64,000 nucleotides of DNA from a virus, in IMG/VR virus record IMGVR_UViG_3300032268_000293, positions 1-64,000 of that record; one strand, given 5' to 3'. Under the pieces are notes generated by a model. It was not told where the DNA came from and made no database searches. It worked only from the letters and a program-made list of their open reading frames with translations. Below, one piece after another: positions 4,023 through 51,631 of the stretch (positions are counted from its first letter, which is position 1; the number at the start of each line of letters is the position of its first letter). Both the position numbers and the translations under genes were made by a program.

Positions 4023-4268
4023 TTACTCCTCTAATGGAACTTCATCAAACTTTTTTTCCTGAATAGTTTTTTCTTTCCAAATCTTTCTAGGATTACCGCA
4101 CATTATACAGTGTGGCTGACCACAATCCATTGCGTGATGCTTAGCATATTTGTGTGGTTCTTTTACTTCGACACCATGCGCCTTCGCAATTTTAACTTGC
4201 CTTTTAACAGCAGTTTTTTTGCTATGAATACGCTTAGAATGTTGTTCTTTAGTTTGGGTATCACTCAT
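4023..4268 (-). CDS. Hypothetical basic protein, possible Zn-binding
   Basis: HHAMDCGQPHCIMCGNPR; translationally coupled to clpP. Confidence 0.65.
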   Translation of the reverse strand: MSDTQTKEQHSKRIHSKKTAVKRQVKIAKAHGVEVKEPHKYAKHHAMDCGQPHCIMCGNPRKIWKEKTIQEKKFDEVPLEE

Positions 4269-4825
4269 TAGTATAGATCCTTTACAATATCACAGAGTCC
4301 GAGTTTTTTTGCTTCTGCTGCAGCAAGCCAGACATCTTGTGGTGGTAGAAGTTTGTCTCTAATTGTTTCTTCGTCTAATCCTGTGCACTTCTTATAATGC
4401 GATATTAACCTTTTGGTCACTAAATCAAATTCTTTAACTTGCGCAAAGAGTTCATGTTCTTTACCAAAAGAACCCCATGAGTATTGATGCGAAAGGATAG
4501 AAGTGTTTGGCGTAAGAACACGTTGTCCTTTCTCTCCTGCAATGAACATGAGCAGACCAGCCGAAGCGATCTGCCCAAGTCCGATAGTTCTAACAGGAAT
4601 ATGGCTACCTTTAATTGTATCAATAACAGCAAACGCTGCATTTAAATCACCACCTGGAGAACAGATGATTAGATTTAAAACATCAAAATTTTCTTCAGAA
4701 AAATTACAATGAAATATCCACTCAACAACATTTTTACAAGAGGAAGTGGATACCTCATCCATAAACAAAAGGAAGTTTTGATTTGAATCACTAGAATCTA
4801 GTTTGATATTTAGTTTGTCTAGCAT
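4268..4825 (-). CDS. clpP: ClpP-family protease
   Basis: ICSPGG, GQIASAG (catalytic Ser), ILSHQ (His), EAKKLGLCD; start adjusted to 4825. Confidence 0.88.
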   Translation of the reverse strand: MLDKLNIKLDSSDSNQNFLLFMDEVSTSSCKNVVEWIFHCNFSEENFDVLNLIICSPGGDLNAAFAVIDTIKGSHIPVRTIGLGQIASAGLLMFIAGEKGQRVLTPNTSILSHQYSWGSFGKEHELFAQVKEFDLVTKRLISHYKKCTGLDEETIRDKLLPPQDVWLAAAEAKKLGLCDIVKDLY

Positions 4826-5348
4826 AGGTATATTCCTCTTTTGGTTTATAAAATATATGACGACCAATTGTTGTGGTCTTGTCGAGTTTCCAACGAGGGT
4901 TTACATAATCTGCGTGATAATATAAAGCACCTTTAGATGGATCCTCAATCACTCCATGGTTAAAATAAACATAGAGTGCTAATTCTCTCGCCTCATTGTA
5001 TATAGCAGGGTTTGGTTTTCTCTGCACAGATCCATCACATAACCATGTAAATTGACATACACCTTGTGTCTTTTGAGTCACAACACCACAGATTGAGGAA
5101 TCAAACTTCTGTGATTTGACACGATTAATTGTAACAGCAGCAACTGCTATTCTTCCTTCTTTTGGTTCATATCCTGCTTCGTAATATATGTTATCAGCAA
5201 GACAATCAACTTCTTTTTTTTCTTTTGTGTTTAAAAACTCGTAAGGAACATTAACAATACTTGACGCTAACATTTTCCCATGAGCAGTAGTAAACAAGTA
5301 AGCAAAAATAACAACGATAATTAACAGAACAGTTGTTATAAACTTCAT
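4791..5348 (-). CDS. Cell wall hydrolase, SleB/Hydrolase_2 family
   Basis: CLADNIYYEA, VTINRV, CQFTW, GALYYHADYVNPRW, IGRHIFY; N-terminal TM. Confidence 0.9.
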   Translation of the reverse strand: MKFITTVLLIIVVIFAYLFTTAHGKMLASSIVNVPYEFLNTKEKKEVDCLADNIYYEAGYEPKEGRIAVAAVTINRVKSQKFDSSICGVVTQKTQGVCQFTWLCDGSVQRKPNPAIYNEARELALYVYFNHGVIEDPSKGALYYHADYVNPRWKLDKTTTIGRHIFYKPKEEYTYARQTKYQTRF

Positions 5349-5693: not shown

Positions 5694-5756
5694 AGTAATT
5701 ACCTTTCTGTGTTGTGTGTGAAAAATTCAAATTTGTGTGTTCATAATATATACACT

Positions 5757-5764
5757 TATTTATA
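5757..5764 (-). promoter_or_regulatory. T4-type late promoter TATAAATA
   Basis: Exact match ~65 nt upstream of the 5693 start. Confidence 0.6.
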
Positions 5765-5766
5765 AT

Positions 5767-6050
5767 GGTTGGTTATTCTGTTACGAGGAAACCAACCGAA
5801 ACCCTAGTCAGCTATTAAGCTGCCAATGCGTAACTTTCGTCATTTGCATTTACTTTATTTGCTTGATTTACGGTCATCGCCTACCGTGTTGCCGTCTCTA
5901 CTATCTAGCCCTGTCGAAACCAATGCATCCCCATCAAAAACGCACTACAAGGTTGCCCATTATTAAGAGGGGTGTAGTGCCCTTTTGGTGGAGATGGGGA
6001 GAGTCGAACTCCCGTCCAGAACTCCTTCGCTTTGAAGGGATTACAACAAT
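5767..6050 (-). ncRNA. ssrA: Circularly permuted (two-piece) tmRNA
   Basis: Acceptor piece ends GGAGTTCGACTCTCCCCATCTCCACCA (CCA at 5986). After a 53-nt spacer the coding piece starts GGGGATG (5932), pairing with CATCTCC including G3:U. Tag frame ANDESYALAA-stop at 5847-5815. Confidence 0.92.
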
Positions 6051-6051
6051 T

Positions 6052-6168
6052 CTAAAAATCTGAATTCTTTTTATCTTCTTCGAAATTACTCCAGTCGTAT
6101 GTTACCAGCTTATACACCCAGTAAACATGTAGAACAATAATCAGCAGAAAAAGAATTAGATTAGACAT
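6052..6168 (-). CDS. Small membrane protein, 38 aa (not in ORF track)
   Basis: MSNLILFLLIIVLHVYWVYKLVTYDWSNFEEDKKNSDF, immediately after the ahpD stop. Confidence 0.45.
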   Translation of the reverse strand: MSNLILFLLIIVLHVYWVYKLVTYDWSNFEEDKKNSDF

Positions 6169-18590: not shown

Positions 18591-18619
18591 ATTATACCTG
18601 AAAACATAATAATTGTCAA
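18591..18619 (-). promoter_or_regulatory. Early sigma70-type promoter
   Basis: Perfect TTGACA-17-TATAAT. Confidence 0.85.
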
Positions 18620-18814: not shown

Positions 18815-19041
18815 TTCCCTTTAATAATTGCCATTTTCTCACAAGTAGAACGAACATCTTTATTACCAGTAGATAATTGAGATGCACATGCTGCGACAGT
18901 TGGATCAATACCACGTGCAATCGCAGCATTAACAATCTCTTTAGAATTATTACTCTCAATCACATTGTAGTATGTCACACAACCAATCAAAGTTGTAGCG
19001 ATAATACCCAACACACTAATAAACATATTACCTTCATTCAT
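18811..19041 (-). CDS. Small membrane-anchored protein
   Basis: Likely start MNEGNMFISVLGII; AIARGIDPTVAAC. Confidence 0.55.
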   Translation of the reverse strand: MNEGNMFISVLGIIATTLIGCVTYYNVIESNNSKEIVNAAIARGIDPTVAACASQLSTGNKDVRSTCEKMAIIKGK

Positions 19042-19423
19042 TTTCTTTTTCCTCTTCAAGAACAACTGGGTCTGGATGTGGTGGATAATCTTCTGTAAGT
19101 TCTCCACTGAATTCAATAATCGATTCGTAACGGAAAGATCTCCAATCTTGTTTATCAAGATCAAAAACTGCGATTGAATCTTCAGGAGATTTTCTTTTAC
19201 CGTTTCCAGTAGACTTCTTATCTTCTGGGATAAGTTCTTCATTTAACGTACACCTCATCTTTCTAATTTCACCATTCACTTTCTTGAATGTGAGATTAAC
19301 CTCAATCTCTTTCAACAATCCAGCGAACCATTTTTTAAAGTTGGGATGATTAAGTTCTTCTTTGCGTCTCTTCTCTTCCTCAACATCTATAACGTCTATA
19401 ACATCAATAATATCATTTGTCAT
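19034..19423 (-). CDS. WYL_2/Sm-like SH3 beta-barrel protein
   Basis: TFKKVNGEIRKMRCTL, VFDLDKQDWRSFR. Confidence 0.7.
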   Translation of the reverse strand: MTNDIIDVIDVIDVEEEKRRKEELNHPNFKKWFAGLLKEIEVNLTFKKVNGEIRKMRCTLNEELIPEDKKSTGNGKRKSPEDSIAVFDLDKQDWRSFRYESIIEFSGELTEDYPPHPDPVVLEEEKENE

Positions 19424-19751
19424 TTACTTCTCTCCATAAATCAGTACCCTCAAGAATAACACCCTTCTTTTGCGGATATGCTACACTAAATCTTTCACTC
19501 AATTCGTCTTTTGTCCCACCTTGGCAAATGAATGCTTGGTTAGTTGTGTTGTATAAGAAATATTCGCTGTTGTGTTTCTCAACACGCATAGGAACAACGT
19601 TCTCTTTAAACTGTTCTTGTATTTCAGCAAGATCGTTCGATAATTCATTATGTAATTGTTTTACAAGATATTTCGCATAAAGTTCTCTAAGAACCCAACC
19701 AGTATGAACTGCACCAATAATGATGGCAACTAAAAATAACAGATCAATCAT
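19413..19751 (-). CDS. Membrane-anchored hypothetical protein
   Basis: N-terminal TM; coupled ORF. Confidence 0.6.
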   Translation of the reverse strand: MIDLLFLVAIIIGAVHTGWVLRELYAKYLVKQLHNELSNDLAEIQEQFKENVVPMRVEKHNSEYFLYNTTNQAFICQGGTKDELSERFSVAYPQKKGVILEGTDLWREVNDK

Positions 19752-20416
19752 AACAACTTATCTTGTTTGTACTCAGACAGGTCAACTTCCATAGGAACAA
19801 CCTTCCAACCAATTGCGTTCAAGTCGTTCTGAACTTCATCATCAATATTACCTTCACCACCAGAGCAGTACCAATTCAAGTAGTCGCCTTCGCCGAGGAT
19901 ATCAGCAATCAAACCACCAGTAGCACGCCAGCTGTAACCTGTAGTGTAGTCGCCGTATACTAAGTCGTTATTACACAAAGTTGCGTAGAAACGGACACAG
20001 TAGTTTCTACTATTACGCATCTTAGTTTTGATGGTATCGGAGTCTTGAATATTGCGTATAAGATTTGGTTGTTGAAGATCGATATGATCTTTGTCATCAG
20101 TAATGAAGTCTGTTTGCTTTTCAAAATCAGCCATCCACTCTTGACGTAGTTTCTCAAGAGTACCTGCTCGATCGCGTAGATAAACCTTGCTATGAACAGT
20201 AGAGAAAAAACTACTGAATGTGTTAAATTGTTCTTCAGTTAAAAACATCTCAAGTTTGTTAAAATCCAACTTACCAGAGTTGTCAGTCTTACCAATCATC
20301 ACATGAATGTAATCAGGATGAGCATCGAACACATTAATATATGTGGTTACGTCGCCATGGTCGATCTCCAAGTGTTCATGAATTTCAGTCTCAAGTTTAT
20401 CAATTTGACTGTCCAC
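19748..20416 (-). CDS. Hypothetical protein
   Basis: SD AAGGAG; YATLCNN, SWRATGGLIAD, DYLNWYCSG. Confidence 0.7.
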   Translation of the reverse strand: MDSQIDKLETEIHEHLEIDHGDVTTYINVFDAHPDYIHVMIGKTDNSGKLDFNKLEMFLTEEQFNTFSSFFSTVHSKVYLRDRAGTLEKLRQEWMADFEKQTDFITDDKDHIDLQQPNLIRNIQDSDTIKTKMRNSRNYCVRFYATLCNNDLVYGDYTTGYSWRATGGLIADILGEGDYLNWYCSGGEGNIDDEVQNDLNAIGWKVVPMEVDLSEYKQDKLL

Positions 20417-20549
20417 GATGCTTCTCCTTGCGTGTGTATTTCTTTTTGTTTAACTCAACTCGACAACGATATTTTGGTGTGCGCAAATCCTTAGCAATCC
20501 AATTTCTTGGTTTACTTACGGGAATAACCAGCGCACATCGAGTATCCAT
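20400..20549 (-). CDS. ArfA-like basic peptide, 49 aa (not in ORF track)
   Basis: MDTRCALVIPVSKPRNWIAKDLRTPKYRCRVELNKKKYTRKEKHRGQSN resembles the ArfA core N-x-I-x3-L-x2-P-x-(F/Y)R-x-RVE-x-NKK...Y-x-RK-x-KH; SD AAGGA. Confidence 0.6.
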   Translation of the reverse strand: MDTRCALVIPVSKPRNWIAKDLRTPKYRCRVELNKKKYTRKEKHRGQSN

Positions 20550-20697
20550 CATCATGTCCTTGTGTATATTGTTGCATACCTAGAGTATTTAAATAACTCT
20601 CCAACTCTTTATATTTTACCTCGGAAATATCATTAATGTCAACCCCCAAGATTTGCAGGACTCGAACAGTGGCAAAATCAAGTTCGCTCTGATACAT
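20512..20697 (-). CDS. Hypothetical protein
   Basis: Overlap-coupled ORF. Confidence 0.5.
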   Translation of the reverse strand: MYQSELDFATVRVLQILGVDINDISEVKYKELESYLNTLGMQQYTQGHDDGYSMCAGYSRK

Positions 20698-20935: not shown

Positions 20936-21220
20936 TCATAGCATTCTTATTAAACCAATAGTATCAATTGTTGTTAGCAGGATGTAGTTAGCCAACATGC
21001 CAAATGATTTCCGAGTATAACTAGCCCAAGCATACATAGCACAACCAAAGATCCAGATAGGATATAAAACAAGTAAGGGAGGATTAGGGACTGTGAGTGC
21101 CATAGTGATCGAACACCCGATAGAGATCGCCCAAGCCAAAACCTCAACAACGAAACGTAATTTGTTACTTTTCCAATCATCTTTTATCCATGCAAATGTA
21201 TTTATCAAAAATCCTAACAT
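20936..21220 (-). CDS. Small multi-pass membrane protein
   Basis: Three hydrophobic helices. Confidence 0.65.
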   Translation of the reverse strand: MLGFLINTFAWIKDDWKSNKLRFVVEVLAWAISIGCSITMALTVPNPPLLVLYPIWIFGCAMYAWASYTRKSFGMLANYILLTTIDTIGLIRML

Positions 21221-22095
21221 ACTTCCACCACTTTTAGTTCAAAGGTATTAGAGATACCTTCGTAACCGAGATATCCACGAGGATTACACACAACACGTGT
21301 GTTCCCGATCATATAATCATATCGCTCATGCGTATGACCATGTGTCCACAATTTAATTTGGGGGTGATCTAAAATATATTCTACATAGTCGTTGTGATAA
21401 CCACCATTCATGTACTCATCGTCAGAGTAACGAGGATGCATAGATTGCCTTGATGGGGTGTGATGTCCAACAACAACTACTTTATCGTTTTCAGAAACAA
21501 TGTGTTTGATGTAATCAAAACATTTTTTGTTTTCTTCAACAGCATCTTCAGGACAAAACGTCGCGACACGTGTTTTGAATGATGGGATTTGACGCCCATC
21601 TTCCGTAACCTCAAATGTTTTGTAACTTACCTCACGATTGCTGTTTTTTACACAGTTAAAATCGTTCATCATACTTTTGATGTGATACATTGTCATTGGA
21701 TCTTCATTGTTCATGTTAGTCCACAATGTACCACCAACAAATGTAATGTCATCAATCTTCAAAAGTTCTTTATCAAGAACATGAACATTCGTCAAGTATT
21801 TGAATTTGTGCTTCAACGAAGACAACGTATATCTGAAGTCGCCATGGTAATGTTCATGATTACCAGCTACATAGATAACATGTGGAAACTCAGAAGCGCA
21901 ATCCTGAAAGAATCTATGATACATGTTCGATTTGTTTCTTGCGAAACCAGTCTCGACTTGTTGTTCGTTCCATTCATCAAGATCGTTCTCAACTAGAATG
22001 TCACCAGAGAGGATGAGTACATCAACATCTCCAGGATTCTTTAGGATAAGTGGTCCGAACTCTAAATGAACATCGGAACATACTGCAATTTTCAT
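21214..22095 (-). CDS. Calcineurin-like metallophosphoesterase
   Basis: SDVHLEF, LSGDI, GNHEHY, GHH, HGHTH, CNPRGY. Confidence 0.9.
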   Translation of the reverse strand: MKIAVCSDVHLEFGPLILKNPGDVDVLILSGDILVENDLDEWNEQQVETGFARNKSNMYHRFFQDCASEFPHVIYVAGNHEHYHGDFRYTLSSLKHKFKYLTNVHVLDKELLKIDDITFVGGTLWTNMNNEDPMTMYHIKSMMNDFNCVKNSNREVSYKTFEVTEDGRQIPSFKTRVATFCPEDAVEENKKCFDYIKHIVSENDKVVVVGHHTPSRQSMHPRYSDDEYMNGGYHNDYVEYILDHPQIKLWTHGHTHERYDYMIGNTRVVCNPRGYLGYEGISNTFELKVVEVC

Positions 22096-22496: not shown

Positions 22497-22525
22497 ATTA
22501 TACTTTAGATTCGTATTATTGTCAA
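22497..22525 (-). promoter_or_regulatory. Early sigma70-type promoter
   Basis: Perfect TTGACA-17-TATAAT. Confidence 0.85.
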
Positions 22526-47925: not shown

Positions 47926-49275
47926 TTATCCGAAAAATTCGTCTAAACTCTGGGTTTCTTGCGTTTCGAAGTGTTCATCGAACATATTTCGCGAATTTTT
48001 AGCCAAGTTTGGATCGAAATTCGTTTTTGTAAGAAGTTCGTTTAGATACCCAGTTGGCTTTTGTTCAGCCAAATCAACATAATGCTGGGCAATACGCTTA
48101 CGATCAAACTGCTGGATTAACTCATAGTTGTTGTTGACGATACGCATATACTCAGTCTCTGGCATATCGCAGTACTCAGCGATCTTTTCGCCATATTCTT
48201 TTGGTGTATAGGACTTCTTAAGCATACAGTAGTTGACCCCTGCTTTCAGAAGAACACCATTACCTTCTTCGTTGTTGGAAACGCCATAGTTCACAGCGAT
48301 GGGCACAGTCCCGATACGCATAGCATCCACGACAACCCGATTGAAATGCTCACCAAAAGTGTTAGACCAACTAGAATCAATAAGAAATCTAGAAGTTGAT
48401 AAAATCTCGTCACGTTTTCCTCCAGAAATAAAACCAAGATACTCGAAGTTGCCTGAGTTTTCGGCATTTTCCCAAATACGTTTACCTTCCCTATCAGGTG
48501 TTACGTCTGGGTCATATTGCCTAGTAGCAAAATAATCTTCTTTACATTTTTCCTTCGACATCATGTATGCTGCTTCAATACCATAACCACCAACAAGGGT
48601 TTTGACATTTTTCATGTAAGGTACTGCACGAATAAGGTCGTCCACACGCTTCCAGCGTTTAAATGTCTGTATTGACAGGATTTTGTTCTCGCGACCAGCA
48701 AACTGCGGAGTAGGTGGTACGCCAGCGATATCCTGAGGGTTTAAAATTAACGCTCGAGGTGTGGACATAAAATCAGCTGAGTCATACGCAGCAGGGTGTA
48801 CGCATGCGAGACCAGCAAAATGTTTTTCAAATATACTAATCCAAGGATAGAGTTTCTTTAGATTTGCGTCATGAATAATTACAATTTGTTTTGCTTTGAC
48901 ATTCTCAATCATTGGCAACCAATCTTTATATTTCTCGGTGTCCTTGTTTTTAAAACCGAAAATAGATTGCCAAATAATAATATCGTGTTTGTTTGCGTCT
49001 TCAACAAATTTGTCGATGGACTCTTTTACTTTATAAGAATAATATGGTGCCATCCAACCATCACCTTGATGAACAGGATAACCAGAACCAATACCAATCT
49101 CCCATCCTTCCTTCAATTCAGAAGGAATCTCAACAGGACGAACTGTCTTTGTGCCTTTAAGGTAGGCAAAATTTACTTCATGACCAAGTTCTTTTAATCC
49201 TGCCATTAGATGTTCGCAGTGATTAATGATTCCACCAAAGTTGTTGAAGGTGTGCATTACCATTAAAATTCTCAT
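47926..49275 (-). CDS. GT-B (GT4-like) glycosyltransferase, candidate DNA glycosyltransferase
   Basis: N-terminal FGGIINH, FKRWKR, EHFNRVVVDAMRIGTVP; ends SLDEFFG. Confidence 0.75.
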   Translation of the reverse strand: MRILMVMHTFNNFGGIINHCEHLMAGLKELGHEVNFAYLKGTKTVRPVEIPSELKEGWEIGIGSGYPVHQGDGWMAPYYSYKVKESIDKFVEDANKHDIIIWQSIFGFKNKDTEKYKDWLPMIENVKAKQIVIIHDANLKKLYPWISIFEKHFAGLACVHPAAYDSADFMSTPRALILNPQDIAGVPPTPQFAGRENKILSIQTFKRWKRVDDLIRAVPYMKNVKTLVGGYGIEAAYMMSKEKCKEDYFATRQYDPDVTPDREGKRIWENAENSGNFEYLGFISGGKRDEILSTSRFLIDSSWSNTFGEHFNRVVVDAMRIGTVPIAVNYGVSNNEEGNGVLLKAGVNYCMLKKSYTPKEYGEKIAEYCDMPETEYMRIVNNNYELIQQFDRKRIAQHYVDLAEQKPTGYLNELLTKTNFDPNLAKNSRNMFDEHFETQETQSLDEFFG

Positions 49276-50102
49276 GTCCAAAGTCCTTGTCTAATTTTAA
49301 TCAAACGAATCATCATGTCTTCGTCTTCTTGTTCATAGCGTTGCTCAATTTCAGTGCACAAGTCAAGTGCTTTTTTAGTTTCTTCTTTTTCTTCTTCGGT
49401 ACGATCCTCAAAGTCAAGGAATCCTTTATCAGCCTCGCGACGTTTATCGCAAATAGCAGACCAACCAGATGCTTCGTGGGCATCAACACGTTTTGGTCGC
49501 TCAACTGTCCACCAAGTATATAGATCTAGAATTTCTTGCGCTTTAATTGCTTGGTGAGTTAATTTACCAAAACCCTCATCATCGGGTTTGAGACCCCAAT
49601 CTTCACCAGCTGTCAATTTACGTTGCCATTCTAGATTAGCAAGTCCGCACTCTGGATTGCGCCAAGTGCGCCAACGGAACCATCCTGTGGCATACCAAGG
49701 TGATTTAAACTTCTTGCGTGACTCTTCATCCCAAACAACATGCCACCACGCAAGTTCTACTTCCACAAAATCGACAAGTTCATTGAAGAGGCATGGTAGG
49801 AAGCGATTTCCGACATCACACCAGTTTCCTGGCTTAATGTCACGAGGGTGGGCAGTAAGAGAATGAGTGCGAGTAACCCAGCGATTATTGATGTAGTATT
49901 TAACAGAGTAAATCGCATCAGGAATGTATAGAATTGCTCCCTGAATCGCATCAAGACCTTCTTCGGCAAGCCAGTATCGAAATTTGTGTGCTTCTTTTGC
50001 AGCTGCATTCCAGTTTCTCCATCCCTTTGATGTTTCTGCGTGTGGCTTTGGTGTCCCACGAAGCCAGTCGGCGAATTTAGTGCATGACCAATAGTTGCGC
50101 AT
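49272..50102 (-). CDS. Trp-rich hypothetical protein
   Basis: Coupled ORF; FNELVDFVE, LYTWWT, MIRLIKIRQGLWT. Confidence 0.7.
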   Translation of the reverse strand: MRNYWSCTKFADWLRGTPKPHAETSKGWRNWNAAAKEAHKFRYWLAEEGLDAIQGAILYIPDAIYSVKYYINNRWVTRTHSLTAHPRDIKPGNWCDVGNRFLPCLFNELVDFVEVELAWWHVVWDEESRKKFKSPWYATGWFRWRTWRNPECGLANLEWQRKLTAGEDWGLKPDDEGFGKLTHQAIKAQEILDLYTWWTVERPKRVDAHEASGWSAICDKRREADKGFLDFEDRTEEEKEETKKALDLCTEIEQRYEQEDEDMMIRLIKIRQGLWT

Positions 50103-50105
50103 GTT

Positions 50106-50321
50106 TTACCTCTTTAAATTTATGTATTCTTTAAAATAATTATCAAATTTGTTAATTAAGCTCTCAATGTCACTGCTGTTTGTAAGATCCTCAACTATGC
50201 GCTTCTCATCCATATTAAACTGTTTCGCATATCTTCTTGCGATACTTAGAAGAGTCGCAACTCTCATGTTAGGACTCTTCAAATTTAATGAAAGTTTTTG
50301 TCTTTCTTCACGAAAACTCAT
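50106..50321 (-). CDS. Hypothetical protein
   Basis: Overlaps the dioxygenase stop. Confidence 0.55.
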   Translation of the reverse strand: MSFREERQKLSLNLKSPNMRVATLLSIARRYAKQFNMDEKRIVEDLTNSSDIESLINKFDNYFKEYINLKR

Positions 50322-51631
50322 ACAAAGAATTCATCAATATCAGCCTTTACCGCATTGGGATGATACTTCGCCAAATCTTCTTCACCAAGTTTGTTGCGAA
50401 GGTAATCATACCACTCTTGTTCTTCCCACATTCCTGGGGAAACACCATTCCATAGTTTTTTCCATAGAGGGTGTTCTTTGTTCAATCTACGAGACTCAAC
50501 ATATTCATATCTAGTATTTTCGTATTCGTACGATCCAAGTTCTAACATGTTTTCACGCAAATAAACAACAAGCGAAACACGCTCAGAACCTTCTTCGCAT
50601 ACGATTGGTGTGTTACCATGAATAACCTCATGATTGTTTACCAACAACAAATCTCCTGGACGAACATTTACGGCAATACGAATTTCAGGGAAAATCAAAT
50701 AACCACCTGTGTATCTACCATCATTAGAAAGTGTCAACAGATTTGAAAGACCATCAGAAAAGTCGCCAGCATCACGATGAGCAGCAGTTCTAAATGTTTT
50801 ATTTACTGTTACTGTAGTAAAAGGTGTCTCAGGAATAACAAATCTTGGATCAATTTTATCTGTTGCTACTTTCTGAGCGGAATATCTTGTTGGTAATAGT
50901 GTCTCAAAACCTCTAGCCAAATGCTGAAGGAAGGGATACGCCATCTTAAACTTCTCAAAATTATCACGAGTATATGTAGTCGCACGACCAAACGGAATAC
51001 GAGGATAACGATCGAACCAACCTGCGATACCAGAATCAACTGGATTACCATAGGATGTTTCACTAACCATCTTCATAGTTTCTTGTGTTGATTCTGCTCT
51101 CTGCGCAGGTGTCAACGGAATAATACTGTCAACCCACTCATCAAAATTAAATTTGTTGCGGAAACGTGAGATAACCCAAACATTATTCTTACCCGAACCC
51201 AATGCTTTCAAACGTGACTCTGGTGTTGGATAACGTGAACGAATTTCTTCAATAACATCCTCATCTCCGAGTTTGGCTTTTTCTGCGTTGAGTAAAGCAA
51301 GCATTAGTTCTTCCTGATAATTTGTTACCCACTCACGACCTTCGCCTGTTACCGATGTCCCTTCTTTGATACCAGAAGCAAGTCCACGATTTTCAGTACG
51401 AACAGCAGCCTCACGCAATCCAGCATATGCTGCGTCTTGTTCTTCCTTTGAGAAAAAGTTTTTTCTAAACTTAAAGGCAATATGCCTTTCGTCTGGATCA
51501 ACTCCATAACCAGATGGAAGATAACAATCCGTATCCTCTTCAATCAAAATATCATAATTGGACTCATCAACAAACATACCAAGTAAATGTTCGCAGTCAT
51601 GTTTTTGTTCTAGTTTAATTACACGTGTCAT
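50318..51631 (-). CDS. TET/JBP-family 2OG-Fe(II) dioxygenase
   Basis: FTTVTVN..FRTAAHRDAGD (HxD), GGYLIFPE, IHGNTP, ERVSLVVYLRE; ends IDEFFV. Confidence 0.85.
   Translation of the reverse strand: MTRVIKLEQKHDCEHLLGMFVDESNYDILIEEDTDCYLPSGYGVDPDERHIAFKFRKNFFSKEEQDAAYAGLREAAVRTENRGLASGIKEGTSVTGEGREWVTNYQEELMLALLNAEKAKLGDEDVIEEIRSRYPTPESRLKALGSGKNNVWVISRFRNKFNFDEWVDSIIPLTPAQRAESTQETMKMVSETSYGNPVDSGIAGWFDRYPRIPFGRATTYTRDNFEKFKMAYPFLQHLARGFETLLPTRYSAQKVATDKIDPRFVIPETPFTTVTVNKTFRTAAHRDAGDFSDGLSNLLTLSNDGRYTGGYLIFPEIRIAVNVRPGDLLLVNNHEVIHGNTPIVCEEGSERVSLVVYLRENMLELGSYEYENTRYEYVESRRLNKEHPLWKKLWNGVSPGMWEEQEWYDYLRNKLGEEDLAKYHPNAVKADIDEFFV

Follow-up and report, generated by a model that had tools for sequence, protein, structure and literature searches.

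We describe a small gene in a 64,000-nucleotide (nt) stretch of viral DNA, which we call the window, whose product is homologous to the ribosome-rescue factor ArfA, a relationship that is well supported by sequence comparison. The window is the first 64 kb of the 79.8-kb IMG/VR virus record IMGVR_UViG_3300032268_000293, which is estimated to be about 49% complete. ArfA recruits release factor 2 (RF2) to non-stop ribosomes, and it is normally restrained by tagging through transfer-messenger RNA (tmRNA) and by a hydrophobic tail. The protein from the window belongs to the Pfam family DUF7230 (PF23876). We think that it is probably a constitutively made, release-factor-dependent ribosome-rescue factor and represents an ArfA subtype without the GKGS motif, a function that we predict from its sequence.

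A sequence-only reading of the window had pointed to a hidden open reading frame (ORF) of 49 amino acids (aa) containing PRNWIAKDLRTPKYRCRVELNKKKYTRKEKH. The ORF exists on the minus strand, the quoted peptide is exact, and the frame starts at the third of three consecutive ATGs (20549). The gene is less hidden than this description implied, because IMG names close relatives ArfA (several members of the 90%-identity clusters carry the pipeline label 'stalled ribosome alternative rescue factor ArfA') and ArfA homologues have been annotated in two papers on phages.

Relationship to ArfA

We took the E. coli arfA reference product from NC_000913.3, and the ArfA core that the sequence-only reading had quoted matches it. 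BLASTP of the window protein against E. coli ArfA gave 17 identities in 37 positions with a pairwise E-value of 3e-6. The alignment has a single 3-residue gap, which lies opposite G35-K36-G37 of the ArfA KGKGS loop, and this bears out the proposed match to the ArfA core minus GKGS. The order and spacing of the elements N, P, [FY]R.R[VI], KK, [YF].RK and KH are retained over about 33 residues.

For more sensitive comparisons we used a family profile, A2, made from 142 diverse members of the DUF7230 family. When A2 was searched against 177,635 distinct PDB sequences there were six matches at E <= 10, all of them ArfA chains, the best with an E-value of 1.9e-4. With hhalign, A2 aligned to an ArfA alignment over 41 columns with a probability of 87.7% (P 3.4e-6), and to single ArfA with a probability of 77–86%. 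The ArfA alignment consisted mostly of enterobacterial sequences plus five diverse ones, because a class-wide genome survey gave just 3 hits in 300 genomes.

The Pfam models point the same way. The window protein matches DUF7230 over residues 15–50 (32.2 bits against a cut-off of 27, E 1.2e-7), as do 98 of the 142 collected relatives. Pfam lists DUF7230 as being of unknown function, and our literature search found no paper that mentions it. No NCBIfam model matched the window protein, and a PHROGs search returned unnamed families only. The ArfA model, PF03889, is matched at E <= 1 by 15 of the 142 family members, and the next-best family by 3. In the other direction, E. coli ArfA scores 89.5 bits on PF03889 and its second-best Pfam match is DUF7230.

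There are also natural intermediates between the two families. A protein of Pseudoalteromonas phage J2-1 (ATN93434.1), which is annotated as ArfA and is without GKGS, passes both curated thresholds, with 41.3 bits for PF03889 and 28.6 bits for PF23876. In Roseobacter phage CRP-212 and in 35-aa proteins of SAR11, the N-terminal half of DUF7230, N-x-[IV]-A-K-x-L-R-[ST]-P-[KR]-Y-R, is joined to KKGKGS[YF] of ArfA, and these hybrid proteins score as PF03889. Since the profile search, the shuffled controls (given below), hhalign, the PF03889 cross-matches and the natural intermediates agree, we conclude from these comparisons that DUF7230 and ArfA model the same superfamily and that the GKG(S) indel is the main difference between them.

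We rejected an identification of the protein as ArfT, another small basic rescue factor. ArfT belongs to a KGG-motif family that is unrelated to ArfA, and the window ORF has no KKGGSTNKK-type KGG motif of the kind seen in the Francisella-type 40-aa ArfT.

The ORF is a real, conserved gene. The three in-frame ATGs at its start (20555, 20552 and 20549) would give proteins of 51, 50 and 49 aa. The longest version (20400..20555, MMMDTRCALVIPVSKPRNWIAKDLRTPKYRCRVELNKKKYTRKEKHRGQSN) begins MMMDTRC, and several close homologues start MDT. The block AAGGRCAYGATGATGG at the Shine-Dalgarno sequence is kept in seven relatives, and AAGG-C-ATGATGATG, which spans the Shine-Dalgarno sequence and the triple ATG, is kept in seven diverged ones. 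We found 35 homologues at E <= 0.01 in a set of 5.8 billion proteins, the family comprises 1027 clusters at 50% identity (E <= 1e-3), and at least 494 IMG/VR contigs carry a gene of this family. A megablast search of the 5 kb around the gene against a phage collection gave no match. Among seven diverged relatives, pairwise differences at codon positions 1, 2 and 3 number 90, 69 and 222, and the ratio of synonymous to non-synonymous codon differences is 163/112 in the ArfA-like frame versus 44/230 and 6/278 in the other frames.

Elements kept and lost, and the proposed function

Residue roles in ArfA were taken from published work (PMC8012679, PMC5378476). F25 of ArfA, an aromatic residue that inserts between RF2 strands (PMC8012679), corresponds to Y29 of the window protein, and this position holds Y in 140 of the 142 family members and F in the other 2. 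The ArfA strand Q27-R28-V29-E30, which pairs with the RF2 beta-sheet and extends it (PMC8012679), corresponds to C31-R32-V33-E34; R32 is found in 132 of 142 members and V or I at position 33 in 136 of 142. In the basic tail, K37, K38, K39, Y40, R42, K43, K45, H46 and R47 align with K33, K34, S38, Y39, R41, K42, K44, H45 and G46 of ArfA, so that the KH motif (K44-H45 of ArfA) is K45-H46 in the window protein. Judged by these alignments, the window protein has kept three elements of ArfA: the aromatic residue, the strand that pairs with RF2, and the basic tail that in ArfA enters the mRNA tunnel.

The last residue of the window protein aligns with N50 of ArfA, about where mature truncated ArfA ends. 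ArfA is active when truncated to N47, and its natural active form is without the last 17–18 residues (PMC8012679, PMC5378476). An AlphaFold2 (AF2) model computed from the family alignment (mean predicted local distance difference test score 76) has a helix at residues 19–24 followed by an extended chain. This predicted shape matches ribosome-bound ArfA, which we regard as weak evidence.

The off-switch of ArfA appears to be gone. ArfA is described as a tmRNA-repressed back-up factor of some beta- and gamma-proteobacteria (PMC8012679). The window ORF ends in an ordinary TGA stop codon and has no hydrophobic tail, and such a C-terminal tail is present in 1 of the 142 family members. We detected no stable 3' hairpin at the window ORF (minimum free energy z-score -0.98) with a method that recovers the strong, long hairpin of E. 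coli arfA. With a stop codon, without an RNase III/terminator hairpin and without the tail, the gene should not be subject to tmRNA-dependent repression, and the loss of non-stop control that had been read from the ORF alone was upheld.

From these observations we propose the following course of events. The gene would be transcribed early, from a sigma-70-type promoter, as part of a tightly overlapping three-gene unit. When a ribosome has stalled at the 3' end of an mRNA that is cut or truncated, its mRNA tunnel is empty, and the basic tail of the protein would thread into this tunnel; the bound protein would recruit a host class-I release factor, by analogy RF2 and possibly either factor. The release factor would then hydrolyse the peptidyl-tRNA and leave a ribosome that could be recycled. 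Because an ordinary stop-terminated mRNA would escape repression by trans-translation, the protein would add rescue capacity in parallel to the tmRNA that the phage also encodes, at a time when the infection or host RNases yield many non-stop mRNAs. The link to defence-cleaved mRNA is pure inference.

Several observations weigh against this interpretation. The KGKGS loop is three residues shorter than in ArfA in all 142 members. A18 of ArfA, where a Thr already abolishes RF2 activation (PMC5378476), aligns with K22, which is nearly invariant in the family. L19 and L24 of ArfA together form a hydrophobic patch on W319, V198 and F217 of RF2, the switch-loop contact (PMC5378476), and they are replaced by D23 and K28, each in 139 of 142 members, which makes the patch charged. 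In ArfA an N-terminal minidomain (residues 2–16, with I11 among its hydrophobic residues) folds and thereby opens and activates RF2 (PMC5378476). In the DUF7230 family there are six or fewer residues before the conserved Asn in 44 of 142 members, so these cannot form a minidomain of the ArfA type, and the window protein has in its place a lineage-specific hydrophobic N-terminus of 15–17 residues, MDTRCALVIPVS, which is unrelated in sequence to the ArfA minidomain. As far as the alignments tell, the hydrophobic RF2-activating minidomain of ArfA is not conserved in the family. Taken singly, the window protein has no match to PF03889 even at E <= 10, so the profile similarity to ArfA on which the sequence-only reading had staked its proposal stands for the family profile (the PDB search and hhalign) but not for the lone protein. 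The single-sequence PDB search likewise gave a weak ArfA match (E 0.56), mixed among matches to eL31. Finally, we found no SmpB or release-factor genes in the 79.8-kb record, which at about 49% completeness does not show that they are absent from the phage.

The changes at the RF2-activating face are best explained otherwise by a protein that derives from ArfA and occupies the same A site and mRNA tunnel with a different outcome, such that RF2 is not activated in the manner of ArfA. It might act with RF1 or with both release factors, recruit another hydrolase, or serve as a blocker or decoy that, without rescuing ribosomes itself, modulates rescue by the host (ArfA, or the access of tmRNA-SmpB). 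We consider this unlikely, although it is the main rival. Binding without activation is a known state, as ArfA(A18T) binds the ribosome and RF2 and yet is inactive (PMC8012679, PMC5378476), and the K/D/K substitutions (K22, D23 and K28) and the absence of the N-terminal minidomain in many members would be natural in such a protein. The ten-residue motif AKDLRTPKYR is nearly invariant in phages of very different hosts (Acinetobacter, Roseobacter and Microcystis), which suggests that the partner is universally conserved and is not a species-specific surface of RF2. However, chromosomal genes in syntenic positions in SAR11, SAR86 and other marine bacteria encode these K/D/K residues as well, and no ArfB-size gene is seen there where genome coverage is adequate, which is easier to reconcile with a working rescue factor than with an inhibitor. 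For the phage, which has a tmRNA of its own, a block of trans-translation would be counterproductive. In addition, the protein still has the aromatic residue and the strand that pairs with RF2.

A more far-reaching form of the rescue-factor proposal is that DUF7230 is a distinct mechanistic class of release-factor-dependent rescue factor. Such proteins would have kept the tunnel sensor and the release-factor-pairing strand of ArfA, and would have replaced the hydrophobic, species-specific minidomain that activates RF2 with the charged motif AKDLRTPKYR, which would read universally conserved surfaces of ribosomal RNA (rRNA) or of the release factor. They would be independent of host range, always on, and possibly able to use both RF1 and RF2. 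Phages of many bacterial phyla would have them beside tmRNA genes and tRNA arrays so that ribosomes stay available while RNases of the host or of its defences degrade mRNA, and for SAR11, SAR86 and other streamlined marine bacteria the class would supply the back-up factor that is missing. We put this forward tentatively, as possible but doubtful.

It is very improbable that the protein is a generic small basic nucleic-acid-binding peptide with no role at the ribosome and with a likeness to ArfA that stems from convergence or composition. It is short and rich in lysine and arginine, and the eL31 matches around its weak PDB match would suit such a peptide. A Foldseek search of the AF2 model against the PDB put three ArfA chains at the top, but with E >= 2 these are not significant, and they are driven by sequence. 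Against this, E. coli ArfA(1–55) scores 23.8 bits on the A2 profile, and the best of 20,000 composition-preserving shuffles reaches 13.6 bits. The shuffles never come near the real score, so a high content of lysine and arginine does not account for the match. In the PDB the profile finds nothing but ArfA, there are bridging proteins that satisfy both PF03889 and PF23876, and the elements keep their order and spacing with respect to ArfA. Chance similarity is thus essentially excluded.

The least probable alternative, that the ORF is spurious, covers the ends of two real genes and is conserved through these neighbours or through regulatory DNA, could appeal to the 44 nt shared with the upstream gene, the 17 nt shared with the downstream gene and the ribosome-binding site of the latter inside the ORF, but it is essentially excluded because the middle of the ORF, about 95 nt free of gene overlap, is yet the best conserved at the protein level, its substitutions concentrate at third positions of the ArfA-like frame only, and the family is present in hundreds of unrelated genomic contexts.

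Genomic neighbourhood and relatives

The window has a GC content of about 37%, and the minus strand carries almost all of its genes, which include a family-B DNA polymerase, a ribonucleotide reductase, a DnaB-like helicase and a Tet/JBP oxygenase. The features discussed here are listed in Table 1.

Table 1. Positions of the ArfA-like gene and of other features in the 64,000-nt window.
Feature	Position	Strand	Details
ArfA-like (DUF7230) coding sequence	20400..20549	minus	49 aa and TGA; ORF listing, PF23876 match, mostly synonymous change, homology to ArfA
Shine-Dalgarno sequence AAGGA	20557..20561	minus	7 nt before the third ATG, 4 before the second, 1 before the first
Upstream 61-aa gene	20512..20697	minus	overlaps the ArfA-like start by 44 nt (38 from the third ATG)
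Downstream 222-aa gene	19748..20416	minus	17-nt overlap with the ArfA-like coding sequence
Sigma-70-like promoter candidate TTGACA-18-TAAAAT	20613..20642	minus	11/12 matches; about 60 nt upstream, inside the upstream ORF
Phage tmRNA	5741..6097	minus	tag ANDESYALAA; ARAGORN; Rfam RF01850, 175.3 bits against a gathering score of 84
ClpP-family protease gene	4268..4867	minus	PF00574, 101.9 bits, E 1.6e-30
Sigma-70 promoter TTGACA-17-TATAAT	22497-22525	minus	12/12 matches
Sigma-70 promoter TTGACA-17-TATAAT	18591-18619	minus	12/12 matches
WYL_2 (Sm-like SH3) domain protein	19034-19423	minus	
Calcineurin-like metallophosphoesterase	21214-22095	minus	
Tet/JBP-type 2-oxoglutarate-Fe dioxygenase	50318-51631	minus	
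Group-1 glycosyltransferase	47926-49281	minus	

The ArfA-like gene sits between two genes that overlap it. The upstream 61-aa gene has no Pfam or PHROG family match, and its C-terminus, GHDDGY..[CS][AS]GY..K, is strongly conserved in seven relatives. The Shine-Dalgarno site AAGGAG (20424-20429) and the GTG start (20414-20416) of the downstream 222-aa gene lie inside the last codons of the ArfA-like gene, and the sequence at this start, AAGGAGAA..ATCGTG, is invariant in the relatives. Both hexamers of the candidate promoter are invariant in seven relatives, and in one of these (L063) TAAAAT is retained despite changes in the encoded residues. The conservation of the hexamers is not separable from that of the overlapping upstream protein, and we therefore treat their assignment as the promoter of the ArfA-like gene as suggestive only. 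Two perfect sigma-70 promoters flank the region, which fits an early-gene cluster read by the host RNA polymerase.

The company of a tmRNA and ClpP that the sequence-only reading had given the gene is present in the window, as confirmed by the RF01850 and PF00574 matches, with ClpP at 4283-4774 within its gene. The best Rfam model for the tmRNA is beta_tmRNA, and the ClpP gene lies about 870 nt from it. A tmRNA was also found in all five near-complete relatives (about 160–174 kb) that carry the ArfA-like gene. At 28 of 61 related viral loci, many of which are near-duplicates, the DUF7230 gene is 0.6–10 kb upstream of a same-strand tRNA array, and several distinct array types are involved. One of these loci, L123, differs in that the DUF7230 gene follows a same-strand tmRNA at a distance of about 2.3 kb. 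Together these loci point to a recurrent neighbourhood of translation genes.

Other genes near the ArfA-like gene encode a WYL_2 domain protein and a calcineurin-like metallophosphoesterase. Elsewhere in the window, a Tet/JBP-type dioxygenase gene is near a group-1 glycosyltransferase gene and close to the genes for the DnaB-like helicase and DNA polymerase B. The dioxygenase and the glycosyltransferase suggest that the phage DNA is hypermodified (hydroxymethylated and glycosylated).

Homologues in cultured phages occur in Acinetobacter phages (133, ZZ1, Ac42 and relatives) and in Roseobacter and Microcystis phages, and all of them are annotated as hypothetical. Salmonella phage Arash and Pseudomonas phage pf16 have ArfA genes of the canonical type that stop soon after the basic tail. 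The pf16 gene is an unannotated ORF (locus L004, 1486-1638, plus strand; PF03889 72 bits) whose 5' end is overlapped by the opposite-strand coding sequence pf16_199, and the Arash gene, gp99c (locus L003, 1417-1641; PF03889 68 bits), carries the annotation 'ribosomal protein L2'. In the literature, g10 of Citromicrobium phage RXM is annotated as ArfA (PMC8953757), and gp30 of pelagiphage HTVC027P is an ArfA homologue that is reported to be highly expressed during infection (PMC12753301). Our literature search found no functional test of a phage ArfA.

We also scanned cellular genomes, with one genome per species, and obtained 44 loci. Genes of the ArfA type have chromosomal, syntenic housekeeping positions in SAR86 (L008-L011), in SAR11 (L032, L036, L037, L041 and L047) and in several marine alphaproteobacterial groups (the other loci include L026, L034 and L035). 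The SAR86 gene follows tatC; further positions are between the genes of a response regulator and of a PfkB kinase and, in several Alphaproteobacteria, behind polA and beside RNR. When the 35-aa form of SAR11 was searched against phages with tblastn, the only matches were two weak ones. The better-covered genomes (G002, G004 and G005) have two full-size RF-1-domain genes only, and hence no ArfB-size gene, and PF03889 has no match in the DUF7230-type genomes among them. This pattern of synteny without an ArfB-size gene fits a working rescue factor.

In one SAR11 genome (G003, locus L053), the frame beyond the TAA stop of the 35-aa gene runs into a hydrophobic stretch, TNLTLLQFFELFL. It recalls the tail of ArfA, although a stop codon separates it from the gene, and it may be due to chance.

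Novelty and comparison with known systems

The annotation of ArfA in phages was already known from RXM (PMC8953757), from HTVC027P (PMC12753301) and from the IMG pipelines. What is new is the evidence that joins DUF7230 to ArfA, and the definition of a subtype without GKGS and without the tail, with a charged motif, together with the range of phages and marine bacteria in which this subtype occurs. A family of more than 1000 clusters and at least 494 viral contigs that was listed as being of unknown function can now be tied to ArfA by its sequence, with chromosomal members in SAR86 and related hybrids in SAR11. The SAR11, SAR86 and marine alphaproteobacterial genes fall outside the published range of ArfA, which is beta- and gamma-proteobacterial. 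The form so linked is without the regulatory tail and the KGKGS loop, and its release-factor-activating face is remodelled.

If the protein is active as a rescue factor, large phages would own two rescue routes, a tmRNA and an unrepressed ArfA. This would offer a way to ask how far non-stop stalling limits phage yield and whether rescue counters host defences that cut RNA. The known range of ArfA-type rescue would also widen, and minimal peptides of 35–50 residues could reveal which features of ArfA are truly needed to switch on a release factor.

The nearest well-studied system is E. coli ArfA itself (YhdL; PF03889; PDB 5MDV, 5U4I, 5H5U, 5MGP and 7OJ0). In its mature truncated form it has the same length as the window protein, and the two have the same order of elements: N, a short helix, the strand P-x-[FY]-R-x-R-V-E, KK, and the tail Y-x-R-K-x-K-H. 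The window protein differs in being encoded by a phage, in its unrelated N-terminus, in having K/D/K in place of A18/L19/L24, and in the loss of three residues from the KGKGS loop.

BrfA of Bacillus and ArfT of Francisella are also small proteins that place a basic tail in the mRNA tunnel and recruit a class-I release factor, as we predict for the window protein, and we found no sequence relationship of either to it. The KH motif is common to ArfA and BrfA (PMC8012679). ArfT, of the KGG-repeat family, can use RF1 or RF2. BrfA occurs only in Bacillus and is made from non-stop mRNA like ArfA, unlike the product of the window gene.

Within DUF7230, the window protein is a member above the curated threshold. 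The J2-1 protein, RXM g10 and HTVC027P gp30 (for the last of which we did not read the sequence) are similar to it in being phage-borne, 40–60 aa long, ended by a stop codon and without the regulatory tail. GKGS is missing from the J2-1 protein too, which differs in scoring as PF03889. RXM g10 keeps a KGRGS loop and also scores as PF03889. Compared with these annotated proteins, the window protein is of the AKDLRTPKYR type and has a lineage-specific hydrophobic N-terminus.

The cellular mini-ArfA proteins (35 aa in SAR11, 44 aa in SAR86, and those of other marine Alphaproteobacteria) have the core NxIAKDLR[ST]PKYR in common with the phage form. They differ from it in being chromosomal and in their much shorter N-termini. 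The SAR11 form keeps KKGKGSF, whereas the SAR86 form is 64–74% identical to the phage core and, like the window protein, is without GKGS.

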